Below, piece after piece: positions 768 to 37,958 of a stretch of 64,000 nucleotides of DNA. The position numbers were made by a program, and so were the translations under genes. The notes under the pieces were generated by a model. The model made no database searches. It was not told the origin of the DNA and was given only the letters and a program-made list of their open reading frames with translations. The stretch is from the IMG/VR virus record IMGVR_UViG_3300034104_005002, positions 97,055-161,054 of that record. One strand, given 5' to 3'. Position 1 is the stretch's first letter. Every line of letters begins with the position of its first letter. Source of the DNA: a virus.

Positions 768-1760
768 TTAGAGCACACGGATTTTTTCGTGTCCTACTCT
801 GATTCTTGGATCAACTAGAATATCGATACCCAATTTTTTTGCATCCAGGTTCATTGACACATCTTCGCCGCAATAGTCTTGTACGCCATTCTCAAACTTC
901 TGAAGTTTTGGACCCCACCAAGGATATTCCATATTCTCAAAAACACCCTTGGATACCATCATCCAACCACCACCGACATAATCAACAGAAAAAGGCTTCT
1001 TTCTCTTAGAAATACTTTCGGCGGTCTCATGATTCATAATACCCCCATTCTTCATAAAATCATCGGCCTCTAGCCAATGAGCAACAGAAGTAGTAAAACC
1101 GTTCTCGGTCATATAATAACCACTGACAATTGGATTGACATTCACCATAAGACGCCGAACCCGCTCTTTTCGTACATTAAAATCTGACTTGTGCATAGAT
1201 TCAAGTTCCTCATCAGAAACTTCCCATAGAGGATATTCTTCCTTATCAAATTCTTTTTCAGAAGGAACGTCCTTTACTGCAAGATCACACAATTGCCAGA
1301 ATTTTTCAGAATTAAAAACAATGTCATTATCGATCCATAATTGCCAATCATATTCTAGTTTTCCTTGCCAGGGTTCTTGCCAGGGACCACTTGTGACATT
1401 CGCGCCAAGAACCTTACATCTTGCAAAGTTCACCATAGAAGAATAATCCTGAGAAATTTGAATTCCCATTCCATTGTTCACTAGATCAAAACATAGTTGA
1501 ACAAAACTTTTTAGAAATGCATAAGAACAAGATCTTCCAGGAAGACAGAAAACGATTTTCTTACCCCTCATCTTGGCTTTTACTTTATTATAATATTCAT
1601 TAAGTTGTTGCTGGTATTGTTGTAGTTCTGGTAAGAACGACTCTTGTTTAGACGAATTTTTTTGAATTTCTTCAGAAAGTCTTTTGATATGATTTTCTAG
1701 ATCCTGAAAATCAAGATTATCTGATGTATTTTTTGATTTAACTGTGAAACCTCGTGGCAT
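768..1760 (-). CDS. conserved cyanophage glycosyltransferase-like (GT-A fold) protein
   Basis: MPRGFTVK start, IVFCLPG, WIDNDIVF (DxD), CGEDVS, RVGHEK motifs; late promoter ATAAATA just upstream. Confidence 0.75.
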   Translation of the reverse strand: MPRGFTVKSKNTSDNLDFQDLENHIKRLSEEIQKNSSKQESFLPELQQYQQQLNEYYNKVKAKMRGKKIVFCLPGRSCSYAFLKSFVQLCFDLVNNGMGIQISQDYSSMVNFARCKVLGANVTSGPWQEPWQGKLEYDWQLWIDNDIVFNSEKFWQLCDLAVKDVPSEKEFDKEEYPLWEVSDEELESMHKSDFNVRKERVRRLMVNVNPIVSGYYMTENGFTTSVAHWLEADDFMKNGGIMNHETAESISKRKKPFSVDYVGGGWMMVSKGVFENMEYPWWGPKLQKFENGVQDYCGEDVSMNLDAKKLGIDILVDPRIRVGHEKIRVL

Positions 1761-1813
1761 TTTAATATTCTCCTAATAATTAAGTTAAATTCGCGTCATT
1801 TTTATGAGCCGAC

Positions 1814-1820
1814 TATTTAT
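1814..1820 (-). promoter_or_regulatory. T4-type late promoter (ATAAATA)
   Basis: tatttat on + strand about 55 nt upstream of the 1760 start. Confidence 0.6.
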
Positions 1821-2097
1821 GACGATTTTTACCCGGCGGAAATTTTTTGGTTTATGGGAAACAAAAAGTGAATTTTGATTTGACCTTTTTATGTAATTTT
1901 ACCCGGCCGGGATTTTTTTATAAGACGTAAATTGGTTCGGGTTTTTGGTGGAAAATGGGGGTTTTATGTAATTATGGGATAATGGGGGTGGATTTGGGGT
2001 TTTATTTTAAAAGGCTTTGATTTTTATGGTTAGGCCCAGGCCGCGATCATAACACACCCCGCCCATACTGTCAACTGCTCGTAATAAACTGTAATAA

Positions 2098-2136
2098 TAT
2101 CACGAACCCACGAAGATTAGGGGTGAGTTCGTGATA
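2098..2136. terminator. hairpin terminator
   Basis: TATCACGAAC...GTTCGTGATA inverted repeat directly after the stop of ORF 2146-2388. Confidence 0.55.
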
Positions 2137-2145
2137 CTAACTGTG

Positions 2146-2915: not shown

Positions 2916-3014
2916 GTATCAACCGCTACCGTTTCCATGATTCGACTGATAAGATACGCTGATGGCCGTTTGGTATCACCCGATACAGTGGCCTGGCCTG
3001 ATCTGTCCTAGTAT
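2916..3014. promoter_or_regulatory. divergent NtcA-type promoters
   Basis: GTA-N8-TAC at 2916-2929 and 2973-2986; the second is followed by exactly N22-TAGTAT (3009-3014), the canonical NtcA class II layout. Confidence 0.65.
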
Positions 3015-3019
3015 TGTTT

Positions 3020-3140
3020 CAACAAAATAAAAAGAGCGGGGGCGCCGCAATGATATAAAACAAGACACTTAATCTGCCATAAAATAATAAAGTATAAAGA
3101 ACAAATAAAGACCCCAGAGTATAAAGAACTCTAGGGCCAC
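3020..3140 (+). repeat. dispersed non-coding element copy 1 (putative sRNA)
   Basis: GCGG-loop-CCGC + AATGATATAAAACAAGACACTTAATCTGC + downstream hairpin. Confidence 0.7.
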
Positions 3141-3154
3141 TGATTGTTATTAAC

Positions 3155-3556
3155 TCATGCGGGCAAACTATAAGCAATCATCTCATTTGTGCCCTTGGGC
3201 TGTAAACGAATCACCCCATCTTTGACAGTTCGATTACATTTAACATTGGTAAGTTGAGTCAGTTCCCGCACTTTACGGGCAATACTCTGGTGGTTTTTAG
3301 TAGTCGTAGTGAACGAATATCCCCACACGGGCTGTAGTCCGGCTGGGGTAATCTCGGCCACGTCTATTTTAATGCGGAACATTTCACCTTTGGCAATGAG
3401 AACATTCTCATAATACTCGGTAAATTGTAGCCGCTCGCTGCCATCCTTGCGGGTTCCAATATAACCAGCAGAGCGAACAATGATAGCATTGCTGACACCA
3501 GCAGCACGGCAGGCCTCACGGTGGGCCAGGAGAGCGGTTCCGGTGAGTTTGATCAT
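3155..3556 (-). CDS. protein with cyanobacterial AbrB (cyAbrB)-like N-terminal domain
   Basis: LTGTALLA...RSAGYI...ERLQFTEYYENVLIAKG resembles the cyAbrB N-terminus (LTGxxLL...CGY...TxFYxAxLxAKG); C-terminus unrelated. Confidence 0.6.
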   Translation of the reverse strand: MIKLTGTALLAHREACRAAGVSNAIIVRSAGYIGTRKDGSERLQFTEYYENVLIAKGEMFRIKIDVAEITPAGLQPVWGYSFTTTTKNHQSIARKVRELTQLTNVKCNRTVKDGVIRLQPKGTNEMIAYSLPA

Positions 3557-3667
3557 GGGTTGTTCCCTTGACTGCTCCCATAGTGTAGCAGCTCTAGAGG
3601 CTAGTGGCGAGGTTTTAACGATTAGCGGTGCTTATGGGTCTGATAAAATATGTTTATGAATAAAACC

Positions 3668-3696
3668 TTGACTTTATGGGTCACTGCTGCTATACT
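3668..3696 (+). promoter_or_regulatory. sigma70-type promoter driving repeat copy 2
   Basis: TTGACT-N17-TATACT. Confidence 0.7.
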
Positions 3697-3699
3697 ATA

Positions 3700-3815
3700 A
3701 ACAACAAAAGAAAACAAAACGCAAAAGCGTGATAATATAAAACGGGACACTTATCCTGCACTTTTTTATTATTATAAAAAACAAAAAAAAACCTGGAAGT
3801 ATAAAACCTCCAGGT
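3700..3815 (+). repeat. dispersed non-coding element copy 2
   Basis: ACGC-AAAA-GCGT + GATAATATAAAACGGGACACTTATCCTGCA + ACCTGGA...TCCAGGT hairpin. Confidence 0.75.
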
Positions 3816-3827
3816 GGTTGATTATAA

Positions 3828-4145
3828 TCAGCAGGTTGGATGTTTCTTATTCTCCCACCGATCATAATGCGCGTCGATTACTTCCTGCAACGGTTCGTAA
3901 TCAGTATAATCGGCGGCGATTACACCGGGTTCATTACCCAGAACCAGGAAGATTGCCACCTTTTTATTGTTATGTTGAAGCCGCAATGTGGATTCGTCTG
4001 TAGCCACAGTTTCCTCCAAGAACTCAGTCTTGGATACATCCGAATATCGAATATTTTCCTCTCCATTGTTTACACTCAAAGGTGTAAATCCGGCCCGTTT
4101 GAGGGACTTAAGCAGGGAGCGGACTTCAGGGTGGTAGTCGTTCAT
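3828..4145 (-). CDS. hypothetical early protein
   Basis: ORF track. Confidence 0.65.
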   Translation of the reverse strand: MNDYHPEVRSLLKSLKRAGFTPLSVNNGEENIRYSDVSKTEFLEETVATDESTLRLQHNNKKVAIFLVLGNEPGVIAADYTDYEPLQEVIDAHYDRWENKKHPTC

Positions 4146-4235
4146 GGGGTGAATCCCTTTGACCCTTTAAGTATTGCAGACCCAGGCCGATCCGTCAAGA
4201 CCCCAAACGATCAGAAATGCTTATGGGTCCAGGGC

Positions 4236-4264
4236 TTGACAATACTGGAAAAGTGTTTTATACT
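4236..4264 (+). promoter_or_regulatory. sigma70-type promoter driving repeat copy 3
   Basis: TTGACA-N17-TATACT. Confidence 0.75.
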
Positions 4265-4267
4265 ATA

Positions 4268-4392
4268 AACAACAAAAGAAAACAAGCGGAGGACCGCAAT
4301 AACATAAAACGAGACACTTATCCTTCTTTTTTATACTATTTTTTATACTAAACAAAAGTGACCCGTAAGTATAAAGAACTCGCGGGTCACTG
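4268..4392 (+). repeat. dispersed non-coding element copy 3
   Basis: GCGG-AGGA-CCGC + AATAACATAAAACGAGACACTTATCCT + GTGACCCG...CGGGTCAC hairpin. Confidence 0.75.
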
Positions 4393-4874
4393 TTTTTTAT
4401 ACTACTTCAGTTAGTATAATTTCCTTTGCGTACCAAAGTTGAACCAATGCATCATCCAATTCTTTAATCTTAGAATCAAAAGTAGCATCTTTAGTGATAG
4501 ACGCGCACCGGATCAATTCTCTACGGCGATCAAGTAAAGCCATGCGAATACAATAACCGCTAAGTGTGACAGACATAACTATAAAGAATGAAGGAAAGTT
4601 GGTAAATTAACTAGATCAAGGTGAGAAATTCTTTTTCGTCATATCCCCCAGAATCCATAGCGTCTTCCAGTTCTGTAACTAGCCCGTCAAAATCTTCACT
4701 AGGGGCAAGATGTTGGTCAGAACATCAACTAGGCTACCATATTCTTCGCGCAAATTATCAAGATACTCCCCACGATTAGCAAAACCGTTGTTCTGATAGG
4801 GGCAAGACATGAGAGGCGTTCCCTTGGTTGACTAGTCAACTGTAACCCATAAAAACCAGACGATCACCGTACCT

Positions 4875-4898
4875 TGTGCCACTTAAACAACTGGCACA
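4875..4898. promoter_or_regulatory. palindromic early-promoter element (example of about 30 copies)
   Basis: TGTGCCACTTAAACAACTGGCACA; recurs upstream of most minus-strand cassettes, about 30 nt before a -10 box. Confidence 0.75.
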
Positions 4899-4908
4899 AT
4901 TAAAATAA

Positions 4909-5292
4909 TTATCCTTGGAAGTTAGGAACACTAAAACCAAACTCAAACTTGAAAACTATAATGTTAAGAACATCGAAAATCTCTCTTAGTTTTTCCTTGG
5001 CCAATGGGTGCTCTAAAGCATATTTTTCACAAGGATAAAGATCATCTTCGTCTAGCTCTAAAAGATCCTCATTAACATCTGGAATCTCGTCAGACTCATG
5101 GAAACTCAGATCATATTTCTCATTACAAAAGAATATCTTACCCATACCTACCACAAAAGTTAGATCATTCTCTTTACAGAATGGAACAACAGTTGATTCA
5201 AAGTATTGTTCTGCAATTGCATCAATTTCCTTATAAGCCCTATTTTCAATCTCCTCAAGTTGTTTGGCTATTTTGTCAGAGATAGTGGCCAT
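4909..5292 (-). CDS. hypothetical acidic protein
   Basis: ORF track; palindrome promoter upstream. Confidence 0.65.
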   Translation of the reverse strand: MATISDKIAKQLEEIENRAYKEIDAIAEQYFESTVVPFCKENDLTFVVGMGKIFFCNEKYDLSFHESDEIPDVNEDLLELDEDDLYPCEKYALEHPLAKEKLREIFDVLNIIVFKFEFGFSVPNFQG

Positions 5293-5417
5293 TGGAGAAT
5301 TGTCTGGTTGACTGGATTAGTATAAGGGAGATAATGGGTTGGTGGTCAGGGCCTTGTGACACTTATGGAACTGGCACACCATCAGTCACGATTAAGGTTT
5401 TTATGGATTATACTATA

Positions 5418-5532
5418 AACAACAAAAGAAAACAAGCGGAGGACCGCAATAACATAAAACGAGACACTTATCCTGCACTTTTTTATTATTATAAAAAACA
5501 ACAAAAAAGAGTCAGAATTAACTAACTCTTTT
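5418..5532 (+). repeat. dispersed non-coding element copy 4
   Basis: about 65 nt identical to copy 3; TATACT at 5409-5414. Confidence 0.75.
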
Positions 5533-5542
5533 ATACGAATTA

Positions 5543-5794
5543 TCAATAATTCAATACCTCATTAGCATTATCTTCGGCCTCTTCAGTTGTAACAAATGGG
5601 CCAAAAAACTCAGAATTAGGAATACAACCAGGAGAACAAACTGCCCAATAGTAACCTGGTTCATACAAATTATCACCAGAAGTTTCACGCAATCCTTCGG
5701 CTTCATTATGTTGATCACAATCGGATTGTGAAAACCAAGTGATCCAAACCGGGGTGGACCCTTCGTTATCAGTGTGTTGGATGGTGGTTTGCAT
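5543..5794 (-). CDS. hypothetical protein
   Basis: ORF track; palindrome promoter upstream. Confidence 0.6.
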   Translation of the reverse strand: MQTTIQHTDNEGSTPVWITWFSQSDCDQHNEAEGLRETSGDNLYEPGYYWAVCSPGCIPNSEFFGPFVTTEEAEDNANEVLNY

Positions 5795-5880
5795 GGTCGT
5801 GTCCGGTTGACTTGCTTAGTATAGGGTGAGAAGGGGACCATAAACAGTCCCCTTGTGCCAGTTGTTGAACTGTCTATTGT

Positions 5881-6591
5881 TTAATAATCCCAGCCGTTTT
5901 CGTCTTTTATGTATACATTACATGACGAAAAATCGACACATAAAGTAGCAGTTTGTCCCTCAATTGCATCACTAAGGAAATTATCCGCTGCCTTACGAAT
6001 AGATGTAAACAAATGATCATAAGAATACATATTAGAAAATCTTTTCTTAAACATCTGATAACCCTTACAGATCCATCCAACGATGGAATCAATATCATAA
6101 TCGGCCAATTCTTCTTCACCATATTCACCATCAGACCATTCATCCAGGGCCTCAATTATACCTTCTCTTACGTTTTTCCTGAGTTTATCCATAATCCACT
6201 GATCCTGCAGATACGAATTACACTTATCAATTTTTGTAAAATCATAATCATCACCATTTAATGAGGCAGTGAGTAGAGACTGAATATCACTACTTACATC
6301 ATCAATCGAGGCTGATCTATAACCTCTAGAATTATATCCACACGCAACTCTCCCGGCAATATAACCGCCAATCGCCATAAGCTCATCAGTATAACCACAA
6401 GAGTGTGGCTTTACAGTATGTTCTAGAATGTCATGGGCAACAACTAGCCCATCCAATCCTGGCTCAAAATAATTACGACCAGTATCTACAACTATACCTA
6501 GTCCACCGTATTCTTCATGCTCTTTAATAACCAGAGAATACTTTTTCATGGGAGGAATCCCAGCGACTTCTAAAGAATAAACCACCACCAC
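5881..6591 (-). CDS. hypothetical protein with HDxxEH motif
   Basis: VVAHDILEH...DELMAIG; start probably at MKKYSL. Confidence 0.6.
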   Translation of the reverse strand: MVVVYSLEVAGIPPMKKYSLVIKEHEEYGGLGIVVDTGRNYFEPGLDGLVVAHDILEHTVKPHSCGYTDELMAIGGYIAGRVACGYNSRGYRSASIDDVSSDIQSLLTASLNGDDYDFTKIDKCNSYLQDQWIMDKLRKNVREGIIEALDEWSDGEYGEEELADYDIDSIVGWICKGYQMFKKRFSNMYSYDHLFTSIRKAADNFLSDAIEGQTATLCVDFSSCNVYIKDENGWDY

Positions 6592-6696
6592 CGATAAGTC
6601 AAGACCTTTACTGATAAGATTATCTGATTGGACCCATAAGCAGGAATGATCACCAGAGGCCCCCAGGAGCCCGCCAGAGGCGTTATAATGGTCTTA

Positions 6697-6797
6697 AGAC
6701 AACCACACAAGCGCAAGGGCGTTATTACATAAAACTAGAAACTACTCCTGCAATTTTTTATTATTATAAAAAGAAAAGAGAGAATAAATCTCTCCTT
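6697..6797 (+). repeat. dispersed non-coding element copy 5
   Basis: GCGC-AAGG-GCGT + TATTACATAAAACTAGAAACTACTCCTGCA; TATAAT upstream. Confidence 0.7.
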
Positions 6798-6936
6798 TAT
6801 ATTTTTAGACGCGCCCAACGTAATGCTGAACGCCAGATTCCAAAGTTAATTTAACCGCCAGCTCCCAGGCCTCGTTTATATCCTGGGGAGCACGAAACAA
6901 CTCCCACTGATTAGCACGGTAAATGATAATCATAAT

Positions 6937-7251
6937 TCAGGCAGCCAGAATAAGGTTTGCAACTATTTTTTCACCAGGCAATTCTTGGAGTTTATTATAA
7001 ACAGCCTCGAATTGTTGAACCATGTTCAGATAATAAGCCGACAGATGTGGGCTATTATCATAAACTGCCTGCTCTTCATCACACAAGACTGAAATAATGT
7101 CCAGGATTTCACCAGAGGTTAGAGTGATTTGAGTCATGGGAAACAGGAGTTGTAGAGATTTTAGTGGTGGGTTTTCATCACACGTTACGTTGGTGATGAC
7201 CCTTTTATTGTAAAGGGAGAGAATGGATGATTGGTCAGGACCTTGTGCCAC
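6937..7251 (-). CDS. hypothetical protein (start probably at MTQITL)
   Basis: ORF track. Confidence 0.55.
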   Translation of the reverse strand: MAQGPDQSSILSLYNKRVITNVTCDENPPLKSLQLLFPMTQITLTSGEILDIISVLCDEEQAVYDNSPHLSAYYLNMVQQFEAVYNKLQELPGEKIVANLILAA

Positions 7252-7639
7252 TTAAACAACTGGCACACCATCAACCACGGTCCAGGTTTTTATAGTTTAT
7301 ACTATAAACAACGCAGGGGCGTGATTACATAAAACGAGAAACTACTCCTGCACTTTTATATTATTATAAAAAACGGGAGAGATTTATTCTCTCCTTTATA
7401 CTTCAGATCCTCCCTACACAAACTGGATTTTGTGAGTTTAGATCGAGCATAAGAATAAATCTATACATCGTCGTTGACATACAAACAAACAGAAAAGCTC
7501 CCATGACTAAACAAACAAAAATGGTACGAATGGTTGAAAAATTAATTTGTCCCATGGTGTTTTTGTGTTGACCCTTTTATTGTAAAGGGAGAGAATGGAT
7601 GATTGGTCAGGACCTTGTGCCACTTAAACAACTGGCACA
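7198..7639. repeat. about 70-bp direct duplication of a promoter cassette (7198-7268 and about 7569-7639)
   Basis: GACCCTTTTATTGTAAAGGGAGAGAATGGATGATTGGTCAGGACCTTGTGCCACTTAAACAACTGGCACAC twice. Confidence 0.85.
7307..7397 (+). repeat. dispersed non-coding element copy 6
   Basis: ACGC-AGGG-GCGT + GATTACATAAAACGAGAAACTACTCCTGCA. Confidence 0.7.
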
Positions 7640-7820
7640 CTCCGTAACTTGATTTGATTGCAATAGATTCATTTTAATAAGAGCCGCATCAAATGCAGAT
7701 GTAATTAAAACGAAAATAACCGAAAAAACAAAAATAACACAAAAGTCCTTAAAAGTAATTGGTCCCATGGTGTTTTTGTGTTGACTGGTTTATTATAAGA
7801 TGTGGTGAAATTGGTTTTTA

Positions 7821-8030
7821 TTAAATATCCTGAAACCCCCTACCACTAACAAGAGCTATCTGGTCAGCATCTTCCGAAACAAGAAAAATCTGGGAACTGC
7901 CAATAATGTCTATACGAGTGCGTCGAGGATAATCATCATGTTCGGCTATTTGCTGAATAAAGAGTATTTTATTTGGATCTAGGTAAACTGGCTCACGAGT
8001 TTGCCAATCGGTTAATTTAAGAAATTCCAT
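7821..8030 (-). CDS. small hypothetical protein
   Basis: ORF track. Confidence 0.55.
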   Translation of the reverse strand: MEFLKLTDWQTREPVYLDPNKILFIQQIAEHDDYPRRTRIDIIGSSQIFLVSEDADQIALVSGRGFQDI

Positions 8031-8189
8031 TGACGATAATGGTGTAATGACTAGCTTATTATAAGGGAGATAATGCGTGACTGGTCAGGGCCTTGTGACA
8101 CTTAAACAACTGGCACACTTATGCCCTTCTCCGCGTTACTAGCAACTAGAATAAACTCAGTCGATAGGAGACACCCACCCGCTCAAAAT

Positions 8190-8293
8190 TAAATCAGCGA
8201 AGGGTCGCAATGATATAAAACTGGACACTTATCCTGCCATATTATATTTTTATAAAGAATAGAAAAAAATCCAGAGTATAAACACCCTGGATT
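8190..8293 (+). repeat. dispersed non-coding element copy 7
   Basis: GCGA-AGGG-TCGC + AATGATATAAAACTGGACACTTATCCTGC + AATCCAG...CTGGATT hairpin. Confidence 0.7.
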
Positions 8294-8304
8294 AGATTTT
8301 TATG

Positions 8305-8667
8305 TCATTCTTTCAGATGACAAATATCAGCATGATTGAACTTCTTAATCATAAGAAAACTGATACGAATTGGTTGCTCTGCAAGATAAAACCACACTCC
8401 AGTTTCATCAATTCCAATTTCACCATCAACCGATGATAGGTCTACACAATCACCTCCATCATTATCAGCAATGTATGGGGAATCATCCATATCATAACCA
8501 ACAAAGTAAAGAGTATCATTCAAGACTACAGCATAGGCCTCTGCCAAAAGATTATGGAAAGTATCAAGAGAAATTGTTGCCATTTGTGTCTGGTGTGGTT
8601 GACTCATACAGTGTAACCCATAAGAACCGGTCCCAGTGGACAGTTCATAAAGTGACACATACAACAA
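8305..8667 (-). CDS. hypothetical protein (start probably at MATISL)
   Basis: ORF track. Confidence 0.55.
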   Translation of the reverse strand: MLYVSLYELSTGTGSYGLHCMSQPHQTQMATISLDTFHNLLAEAYAVVLNDTLYFVGYDMDDSPYIADNDGGDCVDLSSVDGEIGIDETGVWFYLAEQPIRISFLMIKKFNHADICHLKE

Positions 8668-8993
8668 ATACCCCTAAAGATTTTTGGATTTTTTATCCAA
8701 ACTGGGGCAAACCTAGTATTTTATTGTATAATACACGATGTTCGACTTTCTTATAAACTTTAATACTTTATCCCGTAGGAGTATGTAAGAGGTTTATAAT
8801 AAAGAGAGAACAATTGTCTTTTGTTTAGAACAGTGACCGAATCAATGATTCCTGGGTGTTCATTATAAAAAACAATTCTTATCACAATTATATTTAGCAT
8901 CTTTATGTGGTGGACAGTTGCGAAAGTGTCTGTTTTTTATGATCTTTTCTGTTTTTTATGATATAATTGTGGGTTGTGTATTTTATGCAGGCC

Positions 8994-9220
8994 AATACTA
9001 CTACATAAAAAAGACTAAATTATAAATTATAAAATATAAAATATAAAATATAAAATAATACAGATATACTACTACATAAAAAAGACTAAATTATAAAATA
9101 TAAAATAATATAGACATAAAAACAAAATAATACAGATATACTACTACATAAAAACAAAATAATACAGATATACTACGAAATAATACAAATAGTACAAATA
9201 TATTATACACGAATACTAAA
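8994..9220. repeat. extremely AT-rich, A-skewed tandem repeats (candidate origin / unwinding element)
   Basis: ATACTACTACATAAAAA x3, AAAATAATACAGATATAC x3, (TATAAAA)n. Confidence 0.7.
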
Positions 9221-9298
9221 AAATTGCCGTAAGGACGTATATTCGCCCAAATTTTAGACTGCCATAAAAATAAATAACTAGGTTAAGGAATTATAACA

Positions 9299-9877
9299 AT
9301 GAACAATCTAAAAGAAGTCTCTAAAATAGAAGGTCTTGAAGATTTCTCTGGGTATTTTGTAGATATTCATGGGAATGTATATTCCAACAGACAGAAAAAT
9401 AAAGGACTAAAAAAGAAAGCATTTTTTAAGAGTGGAATAGGTCCCAGTTATAACAAAGTTATACTATGTGGAAAGAATGGTGTAACAAGAGCCTTTTACG
9501 TGCATATACTGGTAGGGAAACTTTTTATTCCTAAAAGTAATCATAGAAAATACTTCATTCACAGATCAGATGATGTTTACGATAATTCACTGGAAAATAT
9601 CATAAGCGTAGATAAATACCGCGTTAAAAAGGATCATAAGATGGGGCGGCCACGCACCAGACCGGAAATGATAAATGATCTGGAAAAAGAATCCATCCTA
9701 TCCGATAAATTAGTGGCCGAATTGAAACTTTTTTATAAGGCAGCAGTGATAAAAGGAGCCTATCAGGGTAAAGAATTTGACTTTATAGATGAAATGGTTA
9801 CAGAATTGATGGATATGTACGCGAATCAGAGAGGTTTAAAAAAAATCCTTCATCAGATTCGACAGGAGGAAGGGTAG
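9299..9877 (+). CDS. NUMOD4/HNH-like protein (degenerate HNH)
   Basis: YFVDIHGNVYS, YVHILVGKLFIP, IHRSDDVYDNSLENI; TAAATA late promoter at about 9271; AAGGA SD. Confidence 0.6.
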   Translation: MNNLKEVSKIEGLEDFSGYFVDIHGNVYSNRQKNKGLKKKAFFKSGIGPSYNKVILCGKNGVTRAFYVHILVGKLFIPKSNHRKYFIHRSDDVYDNSLENIISVDKYRVKKDHKMGRPRTRPEMINDLEKESILSDKLVAELKLFYKAAVIKGAYQGKEFDFIDEMVTELMDMYANQRGLKKILHQIRQEEG

Positions 9878-10812: not shown

Positions 10813-12285
10813 TCAATCCTCTACAATAACCTTGGTCAGATGGTGCTTTGCGCGAGTTACCTGAACATAAAGAAGATTATCTTCTTGTTGTAATTCCCAG
10901 TCCTGTTTGGCCCATTTGGACGGAGAATAATGATTCATTCCCAGGGAGAATACTCGATTCCATTCCCTACCTTTGGACCTATGAATCGTGGACAATACAA
11001 GAATCTTTTTATTCTCGGTATCATCAAACAATTCCCGAATCTTATTGATTAGAGTAGAAATAGGATCATCAAATGCACACTGATCAATAAAGACCATAAG
11101 TGTTTCTACCTGATCCTCGATTACCTGACACTTGGTATCATTTCCTTTTTCTTTATACTTTTGAATCTCTTTTTCCTTATAAATTTCTAACTTATTGATC
11201 AGGGTCTTGACGGTGTTTACCTTCCACCTTGTTGCAAGTTTGATTAGACCTTCACCGATCTTTCTTCCTTCTACCTTACAAGGAATTTTGTTTCGGATAA
11301 GATTATAAGCAACCTCCACAAGAGGCTTAGTATTGCGGCAGATGATTGCATCCTCTTGAATTACAAGTTTGGCGAGATCTTTTAGGGTACATTCGTCTAC
11401 AATTCCATCCGGGGAATCGGGGTGAGATTCAACATGCGAAACAAATTTTTGGGCCTCTTTTACTACATTTTTGGGGCAGCGGAATGTCACAGAAAGAGGC
11501 AGCTCAACTGCATTAAAATCTTTCTTGATTAGATCCAGGGCATTAGAATCGGCGCCCGTAAATCCATAAATTGCCTGATGTGGATCACCAACCGCAATAA
11601 GCCTACCAGACTTTTTAAGCATCATTTTAACTAATGCCCTGCGAGTTGCATTAGTATCTTGGGCCTCATCAAGAAAAATATAATCGTACTGCCAGATTTT
11701 GAGCCTGTTGCGAATCGGCAGATAAATCATGTCTGCAAAATCCACCACACTTGTAATCTGGTTAGAGATACTAAGAAGATATTGACACGCATCTACAGCA
11801 GTATCATCAGAAACAGTGGTCGGCAGATTATCCCACAGATCATAATGATCAAACATCTGGGTCCAATTATTATAATCATCGTCGATACATGCACCGATTC
11901 CGACTTCTTTGGCCATTGCAACAGCAGATGTCACAAATGGGCGCAGGATTTCGTGCTCATTATTAAATTCTTCCCTGGCCAGATTTTGTAACTTATTTCC
12001 GTCTACACTGATTCTGGAATAGGCCCTTCTAAGAGCACCAAAACCGAAACTATGAACAGTGCCCACCTTTACATCTTTATTGATATTCTGTTGGTTTACT
12101 CTACATTCAATTTCTTTTGCAATTGCCTTATTGAATGCACAAAAGGCGGTGGTGCCTTTTGTTACTTTTAACATTTCAATCAGCGTGCTTGTCTTACCAG
12201 CACCCGCGACGGCAGAAAGTATAATCGATCCCTTCCCACTCTCGACTTCGTTAATGGCGACAGACTGTTGGGGTGAAAGTTGCAT
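10813..12285 (-). CDS. UvrD/Rep-family SF1 helicase
   Basis: AVAGAGKT, LDEAQD, VGDPHQAIYGFTGA, TFRCP, TIHRSKGREW, LYVQVTRAK. Confidence 0.93.
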   Translation of the reverse strand: MQLSPQQSVAINEVESGKGSIILSAVAGAGKTSTLIEMLKVTKGTTAFCAFNKAIAKEIECRVNQQNINKDVKVGTVHSFGFGALRRAYSRISVDGNKLQNLAREEFNNEHEILRPFVTSAVAMAKEVGIGACIDDDYNNWTQMFDHYDLWDNLPTTVSDDTAVDACQYLLSISNQITSVVDFADMIYLPIRNRLKIWQYDYIFLDEAQDTNATRRALVKMMLKKSGRLIAVGDPHQAIYGFTGADSNALDLIKKDFNAVELPLSVTFRCPKNVVKEAQKFVSHVESHPDSPDGIVDECTLKDLAKLVIQEDAIICRNTKPLVEVAYNLIRNKIPCKVEGRKIGEGLIKLATRWKVNTVKTLINKLEIYKEKEIQKYKEKGNDTKCQVIEDQVETLMVFIDQCAFDDPISTLINKIRELFDDTENKKILVLSTIHRSKGREWNRVFSLGMNHYSPSKWAKQDWELQQEDNLLYVQVTRAKHHLTKVIVED

Positions 12286-17304: not shown

Positions 17305-17759
17305 TTTTCGGTGGTGGGAACGTCAATAATAATGATCTCTTGATTGTTATTCAGGTATTCAATTTGAACAACTTTTGGAGTGATCTGGACTTTGCCGATA
17401 ATCAGTGAGCGGTTCATGGTTGTTTGATTGAACTGAAGTCAGTATAAAAGAAAATTGGGGCCAATGGTCGGCCCCTTGTGCCGCTTATTCAGGTGTCACA
17501 CCTAATTTATCATAAGTATCAAAACTACAATAATCTCCCTCTAATTCTTCTGGTCTAGCAACATCTAGAAACATTTGATAGGTATAAAAATCAAATGTCG
17601 ATGATGGGGCAACAAAATTATAAAAAGGATCTCCATCCCTGTATGCTAAATCCGGTAAATTCCAATTAGCCCCAAAATATTTACAACCACTACACCTAGA
17701 TTCGCCATAAATTTCCTGACTTTCACAGGTAATACATCCACCATGAAAAATAGTCATTT

Positions 17760-37879: not shown

Positions 37880-37958
37880 TACTCCACCCCAGATTTGAAC
37901 TGGGAATCCGAAGAAGCAGATTTTGAGTCTGCCGCGTTTACCGTTTCGCCAGTGGAGT
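37880..37958 (-). tRNA. tRNA-Leu(CAA)
   Basis: acceptor ACTCCAC/GTGGAGT, D-arm TGGCGAAACGGTAAACGC, anticodon arm GCAGA-CTCAAAA-TCTGC, T-loop GTTCAAATC; CCA not encoded. Confidence 0.9.

Follow-up and report, generated by a model that had tools for sequence, protein, structure and literature searches.

The locus and its repeated units

The window, a 64,000-nt stretch of IMG/VR record IMGVR_UViG_3300034104_005002 (positions 97,055 to 161,054), comes from a T4-like cyanophage found in lake water. Near its beginning lies a series of minus-strand ORFan genes, grouped in cassettes of one to three and separated by plus-strand repeat units of ~100–165 bp (Table 1). The proteins encoded by these convergent genes are 42–236 aa long and mutually unrelated, and several of the genes have their own promoter, with a -10 TAYAMT, 6 nt and GTCAAC, ~15 nt before the ATG. 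Substitutions accumulate at the third codon positions of the minus frames and two of the minus ORFs have PHROGs matches, which bears out the preliminary description of the units as lying opposite to the genes; the unit promoter is opposed to the genes in 12/12 loci. An inverted copy in one genome, G002, lies in the sense direction upstream of a helicase gene and has no terminator, and given this copy the unit may additionally serve as a leader.

Each unit contains, from 5′ to 3′, a host-type promoter, a leader, a small hairpin (hairpin 1), a 25-nt core, a TATAAA box and a large hairpin (hairpin 2), with promoter and hairpin 2 inside the same unit in 7/7 copies. The seven cores were found on the plus strand where the preliminary description had placed them, spanning 3053–8237 and differing from its consensus by 0–2 mismatches each; 0 are expected by chance, no shuffle having matched. 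The T/A-rich tract and second hairpin that it reported are likewise present in all seven copies, while the supposedly shared A-rich leader holds for copies 1–4 and is almost missing from unit 6.

Table 1. Features of the unit region and other annotated positions in the window
Feature	Position	Strand	Promoter elements and remarks	Hairpin 1	Core	TATAAA box	Hairpin 2
Unit 1	2973–3138	+	NtcA-type box 2973–2986; -10 TAGTAT 3009–3014	3036–3048 (GCGG/CCGC, 5-nt loop)	3053–3077	3093–3098	3110–3138
Unit 2	3668–3815	+	-35 TTGACT 3668–3673; -10 TATACT 3691–3696	3719–3730 (ACGC/GCGT)	3735–3759	3773–3778	3791–3815
Unit 3	4236–4390	+	-35 TTGACA 4236–4241; -10 TATACT 4259–4264	4286–4297 (GCGG/CCGC)	4302–4326	replaced by TATACT, 4344–4349	4358–4390
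Unit 4	5409–5532	+	-10 TATACT 5409–5414	5436–5447	5452–5476	5490–5495	5505–5532
Unit 5	6684–6798	+	-10 TATAAT 6684–6689	6711–6722 (GCGC/GCGT, G.U pair)	6727–6751	6765–6770	6774–6798
Unit 6	7299–7395	+	-10 TATACT 7299–7304; leader nearly absent	7311–7322 (ACGC/GCGT)	7327–7351	7365–7370	7375–7395
Unit 7	8147–8293	+	-10 TAGAAT 8147–8152; long leader	8197–8208 (GCGA/TCGC)	8213–8237	8251–8256	8268–8293
ORFan genes	2451–2897, 3155–3556, 3828–4145, 4397–4576, 4909–5292, 5543–5794, 5881–6591, 6805–6933, 6937–7251, 7403–7555, 7607–7768, 7821–8030, 8305–8667	-					
NtcA-type box	2916–2929		back to back with the box of unit 1				
Palindrome GTGNCA-N10-TGGCAC	5356–5377		between divergent promoters of unit 4 and gene 4909–5292				
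Similar palindromes near units	7244–7267, 8093–8118						
Further palindromes without unit	~4875–4898, 5854–5872, 7616–7639						
AT-rich tract	~8990–9180						
UvrD-like helicase gene	10813–12285						
tRNA	37880–37958						

No further copies of the core were found in the whole 161-kb phage record, nor was a complement of the core found within the phage genome. The relatives examined, the cultured Synechococcus phages B3 and B23 and about a dozen uncultured contigs, have 6–10 clustered copies each; in B3 and the IMG/VR and metagenome contigs, the copies of a genome form a single cluster. Matched stretches of the unit region are only ~70% identical between B3 and the window, and certain core positions do not vary in any copy, those of B3 included. 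Family-wide counts below refer to 57 distinct copies, and the orientation count to 12 loci. An exact-pattern scan of 185,579 species genomes revealed no homologue, and no match to a host genome was obtained.

Hairpin 1 and the core

Hairpin 1 is a 4-bp stem with a purine loop, which lies a constant 4 nt from the core, so that the identical spacing noted earlier is confirmed. The covariation of its stem is also upheld. Several stem alleles occur (pair 1 is GC in 27, AU in 18 and GU in 14; pair 4 is CG in 31 and GC in 27), 97.5% of cells are paired as against 21–61% when the partner is slid, and 0/500 shuffles reached the observed score. Copies of a diverged subfamily retain the hairpin with quite different 5-bp stems. 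Read in the plus sense, the stem has 18 G.U cells and 0 A.C cells, which supports a structure formed by plus-sense RNA or by the plus single strand.

The core, AAAAC..GA.ACU...CCUGC in RNA letters, is unpaired in minimum-energy folds. It is conserved as spaced blocks and is followed at a distance of 13 nt by the TATAAA box in 39/57 copies, an arrangement that would fit a DNA-binding site equally well. Of the occurrences of ATAAAGAA within the units, 24 lie on the plus strand and one lies on the minus strand.

Promoters and the central palindrome

NtcA-activated promoters of cyanobacteria carry GTA-N8-TAC centred near -41.5 and a TAN3T -10 box. Unit 1 displays this geometry, with GTA-N8-TAC (GTATCACCCGATAC) followed after 22 nt by TAGTAT, and is predicted to be such a promoter; together with 11 other family members it makes up the 12/57 copies with GTA-N8-TAC 22–23 nt upstream of TAnnnT, only one or two such units occurring per genome. 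The predicted promoter here differs in belonging to a non-coding unit of a phage. Copies 2 and 3 have TTGACT and TTGACA, respectively, at N17 from TATACT, and TTGAnn-N17-TAnnnT is kept in 16/57 copies. In both classes the spacers are unrelated in sequence and the spacing is kept, which suggests, as had been proposed, that each plus-strand unit has its own promoter. From the end of the -10 to the core there are 38–40 nt in most copies.

The promoter types assigned in the preliminary description stand for copies 1 (NtcA-type), 2 and 3 (sigma-70), and copies 4–7 show a -10 hexamer alone. A ‘LysR box’ had been assigned to copy 5; the T-N11-A pattern is too degenerate for assignment. Copies 4, 6 and 7 do have a palindrome nearby, as claimed, but the divergent gene promoter shares it, and gene promoters without a unit have it as well. 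The centre of the palindrome at unit 4 (5366.5) is ~54.5 nt from both inferred start sites (5312 and 5421), and the palindrome is the putative central operator of unit and divergent gene promoter alike.

Hairpin 2, termination and coding potential

The terminal hairpin had been taken as part of the unit, but it is the intrinsic terminator of the convergent minus-strand gene, with a GC-rich stem and a T run on the transcribed strand. The minus sense is more stable in 51/57 copies, with 75 G.U pairs as against 23, and a copy that has no converging gene has no hairpin 2. Intrinsic terminators were called for every unit except unit 3 on the minus strand, but on the plus strand only for units 5 and 6. 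T-rich tails, though common on both strands, are weak past units 1 and 2, so that termination in the plus direction at hairpin 2 is doubtful and read-through antisense RNA possible.

The earlier statement that none of the units encodes an ORF needs amendment, since plus-strand ORFs of 44 and 77 aa overlap copies 3 and 4. These overlap by chance: in copies with the GCGT-GAT arm a TGA interrupts the same frame, and no ORF is conserved. A search of Rfam (release 15), as the preliminary description had suggested, gave no match for the units at the gathering threshold, the best hit in the region being L20_leader at 28.9 bits vs 58.7. The sole Rfam hit in the window is a tRNA. With promoters of their own, no conserved ORF and a structure backed by covariation, the units have the sequence attributes expected of small-RNA genes.

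Recombination at the units

Comparison of close relatives points to a role that the preliminary description did not mention. The segment 4234–4338, at unit 3, is a repeat that matches both flanks of a 707-bp cassette in a sister strain (L016). The leader and hairpin 1 of unit 4 are identical to those of unit 3, but the orthologous unit of a strain with 98% identity differs there, a sign of a conversion patch; other cassette swaps among strains fall at repeated promoter sequences. These footprints identify the units as breakpoints of cassette gain and loss, with conversion between copies.

Comparison with known systems

The convergent antisense and type I toxin–antitoxin layouts of txpA/RatA and bsrG/SR4 share a bidirectional terminator. 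As in these pairs, a small RNA gene and a protein gene would converge on one terminator, giving complementary 3′ ends. Here, however, the conserved RNA part lies outside the overlap and the partners are the unrelated ORFans rather than small hydrophobic toxins.

Multicopy small-RNA families, such as Yfr2-5 and Cyano-1 of marine picocyanobacteria, Qrr1-5 and LhrC1-5, offer another parallel for the units. They too consist of several ~100-nt paralogous units, each with its own promoter, with a 5′ hairpin, a conserved unpaired sequence and a terminator hairpin, and with a copy number that varies among relatives. Unlike them, the units match no Rfam family, cyanobacterial ones included, and are phage-encoded, strictly antisense behind ORFan cassettes and equipped with a terminator borrowed from the neighbouring gene.

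In genomic setting, the units resemble the PeSL (promoter-early stem-loop) cassettes of the T4-type phages RB49/phi1, T4/PST and KVP40/nt-1 (Arbiol 2010, PMC2839356; Comeau 2014, PMC4122927). Both combine a terminator stem-loop and an adjoining near-consensus, sigma-70-like early promoter in one intergenic composite (7/7 copies here), both are repeated between small ORFan genes in the hyperplastic region of a T4-like phage, and in both the insertions, deletions and replacements of close relatives end in the repeats, as the 707-bp cassette and the conversion patch illustrate. The PeSL promoter points with the genes, however, and is followed by the Shine–Dalgarno sequence and start codon of the next ORF (PMC2839356, PMC4122927), whereas that of the units faces the other way in 12/12 loci, precedes a non-coding leader and serves no ORF, the genes beside it having separate promoters. 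The PeSL descriptions of PMC2839356 and PMC4122927 mention neither a covarying mini-hairpin nor an invariant core of 25 nt nor a TATAAA box.

Proposed small-RNA genes and the alternatives

The explanation that we favour, with a probability of about one half, is that the units are autonomous genes for early small RNAs, perhaps responsive to nitrogen status, and that they double as PeSL-like recombination joints. Early in infection, host RNA polymerase would read each unit as a non-coding transcription unit, starting from a promoter of host type, whether consensus sigma-70, NtcA-activated or reduced to a -10 with the shared central palindrome, proceeding in the plus direction against the gene flow and stopping mostly at a bidirectional terminator that the convergent ORFan gene supplies. 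The predicted product is an RNA of ~90–135 nt, depending on the copy, made up of a leader (A-rich in copies 1–4), the 4-bp GC hairpin with its purine loop, the single-stranded 25-nt core and a 3′ part with one or two boxes resembling AUAAAGAA, of which one falls in the apical loop of hairpin 2. Since the constant parts are the same in 6–10 paralogues per genome and in phages with only ~70% identity over the matched stretches, the most likely role for them would be to engage the same trans partner in every case, and a protein is more plausible here than a base-pairing target. Having many copies would serve dosage and open the system to several regulatory inputs. As ~100-bp direct repeats between cassettes, the units would also serve as joints for homologous recombination, by which ORFan cassettes would be added, deleted and swapped and the units homogenised.

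A more specific and less probable version of the small-RNA reading holds that purine-loop hairpin, invariant core and repeated AUAAAGAA boxes of this multicopy and partly NtcA-controlled phage RNA act early in infection on an RNA-binding factor of host or phage, which they would titrate or redirect; the target may be a ribonuclease, a translational repressor or a defence sensor. If true, cyanophages would thereby gain their first described family of protein-sponge RNAs. A sponge, an antitoxin or an anti-defence mimic, as envisaged in the preliminary description, would be candidate roles of the units.

The strongest competitor, though a rather unlikely one, places the role at the level of DNA and transcription: the unit would be the second arm of a bidirectional early promoter, core and TATAAA box would be bound by proteins as DNA, with the RNA as a by-product. 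Firing against the upstream gene could insulate the cassettes, by blocking read-through or by collision, or else activate a weak divergent gene promoter via local negative supercoiling or a shared regulator. The midway position of the palindrome, the back-to-back NtcA-type boxes and the spacing of core blocks and TATAAA box agree with this, as do the resemblance of GACACTT in the core to a palindrome half-site and the strong minus-strand terminator that directly abuts the unit. Against it, the covariation and strand-specific G.U pairs of hairpin 1 would be useless to duplex DNA, and such a partner is missing from most of the other early promoters in the window.

Antitermination systems such as lambda nut and PR′-tR′ suggest a further, improbable alternative, in which promoter, hairpin and core form a cis-acting leader that modifies the elongating polymerase or the nascent RNA (nut/put-like or stabilising). 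Transcription would then pass the terminator and run antisense over the convergent early genes, timing their shut-off or protecting their mRNAs. The succession of promoter, short leader with purine-loop hairpin and terminator is of this kind, plus-sense terminator features are weak in some copies, and the inverted copy in G002 enters a helicase gene with the terminator absent; antisense RNAs are known to shield cyanophage mRNAs from RNase E (PMC3113571). On the other hand, T-rich tails do follow many copies in the plus direction, an antiterminator protein could not be identified, and 7–10 separate promoters contrast with the usual one or two of antitermination systems.

T4 origins of the oriF/oriG type consist of a MotA-dependent middle promoter and a downstream DNA-unwinding element, with a persistent R-loop. 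That the units are an array of such transcription-primed origins, or accessory sites of one origin that includes the AT-rich iterated tract near 9 kb, as the preliminary description had considered for R-loop origins, is very unlikely. An AT-rich tract ~60 nt past each promoter, the abundance of purines and G on the non-template strand of hairpin 1, boxes of the TATAAA type that recur in the 9-kb tract and, in relatives, behind some units, the adjacent UvrD-like helicase gene and the uniform direction of all units would suit an origin, but inspection of the sequence by eye showed no MotA box, conserved hairpin covariation is not among the known features of oriF/oriG, and cassette turnover speaks against an essential, fixed structure; the cumulative GC skew is flat here, without a turning point, and uninformative.

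Just as hard to sustain is the idea of purely recombinational or selfish repeats, i.e. PeSL-type cassette boundaries kept by conversion with no function beyond ordinary promoter and terminator activity: the indels bounded by units, the conversion patch and the ORFan-rich hyperplastic surroundings are in line with it, but the invariant core positions, kept even in B3, the orientation against the genes in all 12 loci and the covarying hairpin 1 argue for selection on the unit sequence itself.

Distribution of the unit

The window makes up the last 64 kb of an uncultured viral record 161 kb long. Its nearest relatives in culture are B3 and B23, two freshwater Synechococcus phages of the Kyanoviridae (244 kb), with ~72% identity across matched stretches. 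The minus strand carries nearly all of its genes. The unit considered here, a repeated plus-strand element made up of a promoter (P1), a leader, a small hairpin 1, a 25-nt core, a TATAAA box and a large hairpin 2, recurs among small ORFan genes over 5.3 kb; ten of these ORFs were searched, with no match in Pfam and two in PHROGs, both of unknown function. Relative to orthologues, substitutions concentrate at third codon positions when read in the minus frames (e.g. 43 of 68), which indicates that the long plus-strand ORFs are shadow frames.

The seven plus-strand copies claimed in the preliminary description are all present as matches to the 25-nt consensus, shuffled sequence giving none, and no further core copy was found elsewhere in the whole 161-kb record. 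An exact-pattern scan recovered the same core from B3 and from roughly twelve contigs of IMG/VR and of metagenomes; the family is sharply defined and, since both B3 and B23 carry it, testable in culture. A covariance model trained on 57 distinct copies, pooled from the window and its relatives, revealed 6–10 copies per genome, in one cluster every time, and the units run opposite to most of the ORF content in 12 of 12 loci, with a single inverted unit in one genome. By the same model, 9 of 47 loci from a metagenome scan were true members, with no new context among them. A host origin was rejected, as the core pattern, searched exactly in 185,579 species genomes, had seven hits, about the estimated chance number, none of them cyanobacterial.

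Coordinates of the features discussed, in the window unless another contig is named
Feature	Position	Strand	Detail
Core, unit 1	3053	plus	
Core, unit 2	3735	plus	
Core, unit 3	4302	plus	
Core, unit 4	5452	plus	
Core, unit 5	6727	plus	
Core, unit 6	7327	plus	
Core, unit 7	8213	plus	
NtcA-type boxes	2916-2929, 2973-2986		back to back at unit 1
12-nt motif	3629-3640, 4218-4229, 6632-6643		TGCTTATGGGTC; other orientation GACCCATAAGCA
Palindrome	4872-4902, 5352-5382, 5851-5872, 7241-7271, 7613-7643, 8091-8121; near 17470, 19190		GTGNCA-N10-TGGCAC
Unit 4 palindrome centre	5366.5		
Unit 4 divergent starts	near 5312 and 5421		predicted
Cassette-flank match	4234-4338		unit 3, P1 to AT tract
Inverted unit	L017 4230-4389	minus	
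UvrD-like helicase gene	L017 2711-4195	minus	494 aa
Tandem repeats	L028 about 100-580; L026 1-45	minus	TATAAAGAATAAAGA-type
Split gene	4621-4810	minus	43-aa ORF 4679-4810, then another frame to about 4621
GC-hairpin block	1760-2140		hairpins near 1826 and 1897
Conserved block	8753-8877		matches L007 15124-15245
Extended -10-like site	near 8958	plus	TGATATAAT
AT-rich iterated tract	8990-9180		many ATATAAA units
ORF	9299-9877	plus	no Pfam hit

Hairpin 1 and the core

Hairpin 1 has four base pairs and a purine loop of 4–5 nt (AGGG, AAGG, AGAA, AAAA, AGGA or GGGCG). The covariation proposed earlier for this stem holds: 97.5% of its cells are paired in the model-fitted alignment, compared with 21–61% when the partner is slid, and no shuffle reached the observed covariation score. 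The outer pair is GC in 27 copies, AU in 18 and GU in 14, and the inner pair CG in 31 and GC in 27. Wobbles fill 18 cells, each of them G.U when read in the plus sense, and A.C, the minus-sense wobble, does not occur. In a diverged subfamily a hairpin is retained at the corresponding position, built on 5-bp stems that are quite different.

The core starts 4 nt past hairpin 1, is unpaired in predicted folds and is conserved as spaced blocks, AAAAC..GA.ACT...CCTGC. After a variable AT-rich stretch of 13 nt, a spacing kept exactly in 39 of the 57 copies, comes the TATAAA box, followed by an A run leading to hairpin 2, and (G)TATAAAGAAC recurs in about half of the hairpin-2 loops. Within units, the plus strand has 24 occurrences of ATAAAGAA and the minus strand has one. 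Several tandem repeats follow a unit in two related contigs, L028 and L026, so the TATAAA box can be iterated. A consensus fold of the whole unit showed no long-range structure.

That the units encode no ORF, as first described, was borne out: each plus frame is stopped in some copies and no ORF is conserved, so protein coding was rejected. No Rfam family matched at gathering or permissive thresholds, and a search of the phage genome for antisense targets of the core returned chance matches of 9–10 nt only. A minus-strand phage promoter in the core was rejected for want of a consistent -10/-35 and because C.A mismatches would arise in hairpin 1 on that strand; a second plus-strand sigma-70 promoter (GACA-N17-TATTAT) was likewise discarded, given that TAnnnT stands at that spacing in just 40 of 57 copies and the fixed TATAAA lacks the final T. 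DnaA boxes and IHF sites were dismissed by eye, the matching positions not being the conserved ones. Nor is the TATAAA box a T4-type late promoter, TATAAATA being rare and CTAAATA a strand-biased motif; the latter, with 36 occurrences on the minus strand, which carries the genes, and seven on the plus strand across the whole record, is probably the core of the phage's late promoter.

Judging from sequence, we put at roughly 0.5 the probability that each unit constitutes a small-RNA gene in its own right, one which the host polymerase would read and whose predicted RNA would bind one common partner through its constant hairpin, core and boxes, the repeats additionally working as recombination joints. 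The main rival, clearly less favoured and on balance unlikely, is that the unit acts at the level of DNA or transcription, as the second arm of a bidirectional promoter providing insulation or coupling, with the RNA incidental; conservation of the core in spaced blocks and the fixed box spacing fit it, but the hairpin-1 covariation with its strand-specific wobble does not. T4-like cyanophages account for a large share of picocyanobacterial mortality and, to our knowledge, almost nothing is known of the non-coding RNAs that they make. The family combines host-type promoters, an RNA structure conserved across paralogues and phages, and a location at the joints of ORFan-cassette exchange; if the RNA is functional, it would add a regulatory layer in early infection.

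Promoters and the shared palindrome

Among the 57 copies, P1 takes the form TTGAnn-N17-TAnnnT in 16, with unrelated spacers, and GTA-N8-TAC followed 22–23 nt on by TAnnnT in 12, the latter being the canonical geometry of an NtcA-activated promoter. The remaining copies retain the TAnnnT hexamer, often preceded by TGn, and in most of them its end lies 38–40 nt from the core, copies such as 6 and 7 having a shorter or longer leader. Of the promoter types first assigned to single copies, the NtcA-type P1 of unit 1 and the near-consensus sigma-70 promoters of units 2 and 3 stand, but units 4–7 show just a -10 box. An NtcA-type P1 would, from its sequence, sense nitrogen status. The leader is A-rich (AACAACAAAAGAAAACAA) in units 2–4, differs in units 5 and 7 and is nearly missing in unit 6.

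The promoters of the genes are separate from P1 and consist of a -10 box, TAYAMT, then 6 nt, GTCAAC and an ATG ~15 nt further, some also having TGACCA 18 nt upstream together with the palindrome. Many minus-strand early genes have the palindrome upstream, with AAGG and a TGACC-type -35 after it, and at units 4, 6 and 7 the palindrome falls midway between both divergent predicted start sites, from which the two promoter arms look co-regulated. It also serves gene promoters without any unit, and is probably the operator of some regulator.

Two further elements were noticed beside P1, namely the paired NtcA-type boxes at unit 1 and a 12-nt motif, found in many relatives too, which sits between divergent promoters, a few nt 5' of the P1 -35, and is a possible further regulator site.

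Hairpin 2 and strand tuning

Hairpin 2, included in the element as originally described, is tuned to the minus strand: 51 of 57 copies fold more stably as minus-strand RNA (mean -15.0 versus -11.5 kcal/mol for plus), with 75 G.U pairs in the minus sense and 23 in the plus sense. A consensus scan called a terminator for six of the seven window units on the minus strand and for two of the seven on the plus strand. Hairpin 2 therefore belongs to the convergent gene as its intrinsic terminator, and the unit can share it. One unit thus has two hairpins tuned for opposite strands, and this opposite tuning is the strongest indirect indication obtained here that transcription of both strands reaches this point.

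In L017, a related 127-kb contig, an inverted unit stands back to back with a normal one and has P1, hairpin 1, core and box without hairpin 2, which indicates that the unit proper extends from P1 through the box. It lies upstream of, and in the same direction as, a UvrD-like helicase gene, so that a unit may also act as a leader. The reading of the units as cis-acting leaders that give read-through antisense RNA seems improbable to us.

Exchange between copies

Compared with L016, from a 98%-identical strain, the window is missing a 707-bp cassette, both flanks of which match unit 3; the remaining differences are replacements or deletions ending in repeated promoter sequences. Unit 4 differs from its orthologue solely in a ~25-nt patch over the leader end and hairpin 1, and this patch is identical to unit 3 in the window. 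Copies therefore exchange sequence and mediate cassette gain and loss, as likewise described for the promoter-early stem-loop (PeSL) cassettes of T4-type phages (PMC2839356, PMC4122927). PeSL-mediated shuffling was judged unlikely for the studied region of cyanophage S-PM2 (PMC4503421).

Part of the hairpin-1 covariation is whole alleles moved between copies by such exchange; several distinct stem alleles exist and every one pairs. That the units are purely recombinational repeats is very unlikely in our estimation. Should the RNA not be functional, the units would still carry over to cyanophages the PeSL concept, in which regulatory repeats act as joints for recombination, and they show a new, inverted architecture for PeSL-like repeats.

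An array of R-loop origins, also raised in the preliminary description, is given very little weight. GC skew is monotonic and uninformative, giving no sign of an origin.

Other features of the region

Within 8955-9298, the plus-strand extended -10 promoter-like site lies 5' of the AT-rich iterated tract and also of one of the region's few plus-strand ORFs, and the tract may serve as a long 5' leader, either in place of an origin or in addition to one. The non-coding block that precedes it is 81.6% identical to B3, well over the level of the adjacent genes; the B3 counterpart adjoins a tRNA-Leu, and the block in the window contains no tRNA and has no Rfam match. At the other end, ~400 bp of non-coding sequence hold two similar GC hairpins followed by plus-strand T runs (TTTTACCCGGCGG..TTTTTT and TTTTACCCGGCCGGG..TTTTTTT), along with G/T-rich repeats, and possibly mark where the early region ends. 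A small minus-strand gene that looks split by a frameshift is conserved to B3 (71–76% identity), and represents either a pseudogene or an indel that arose in sequencing or assembly.
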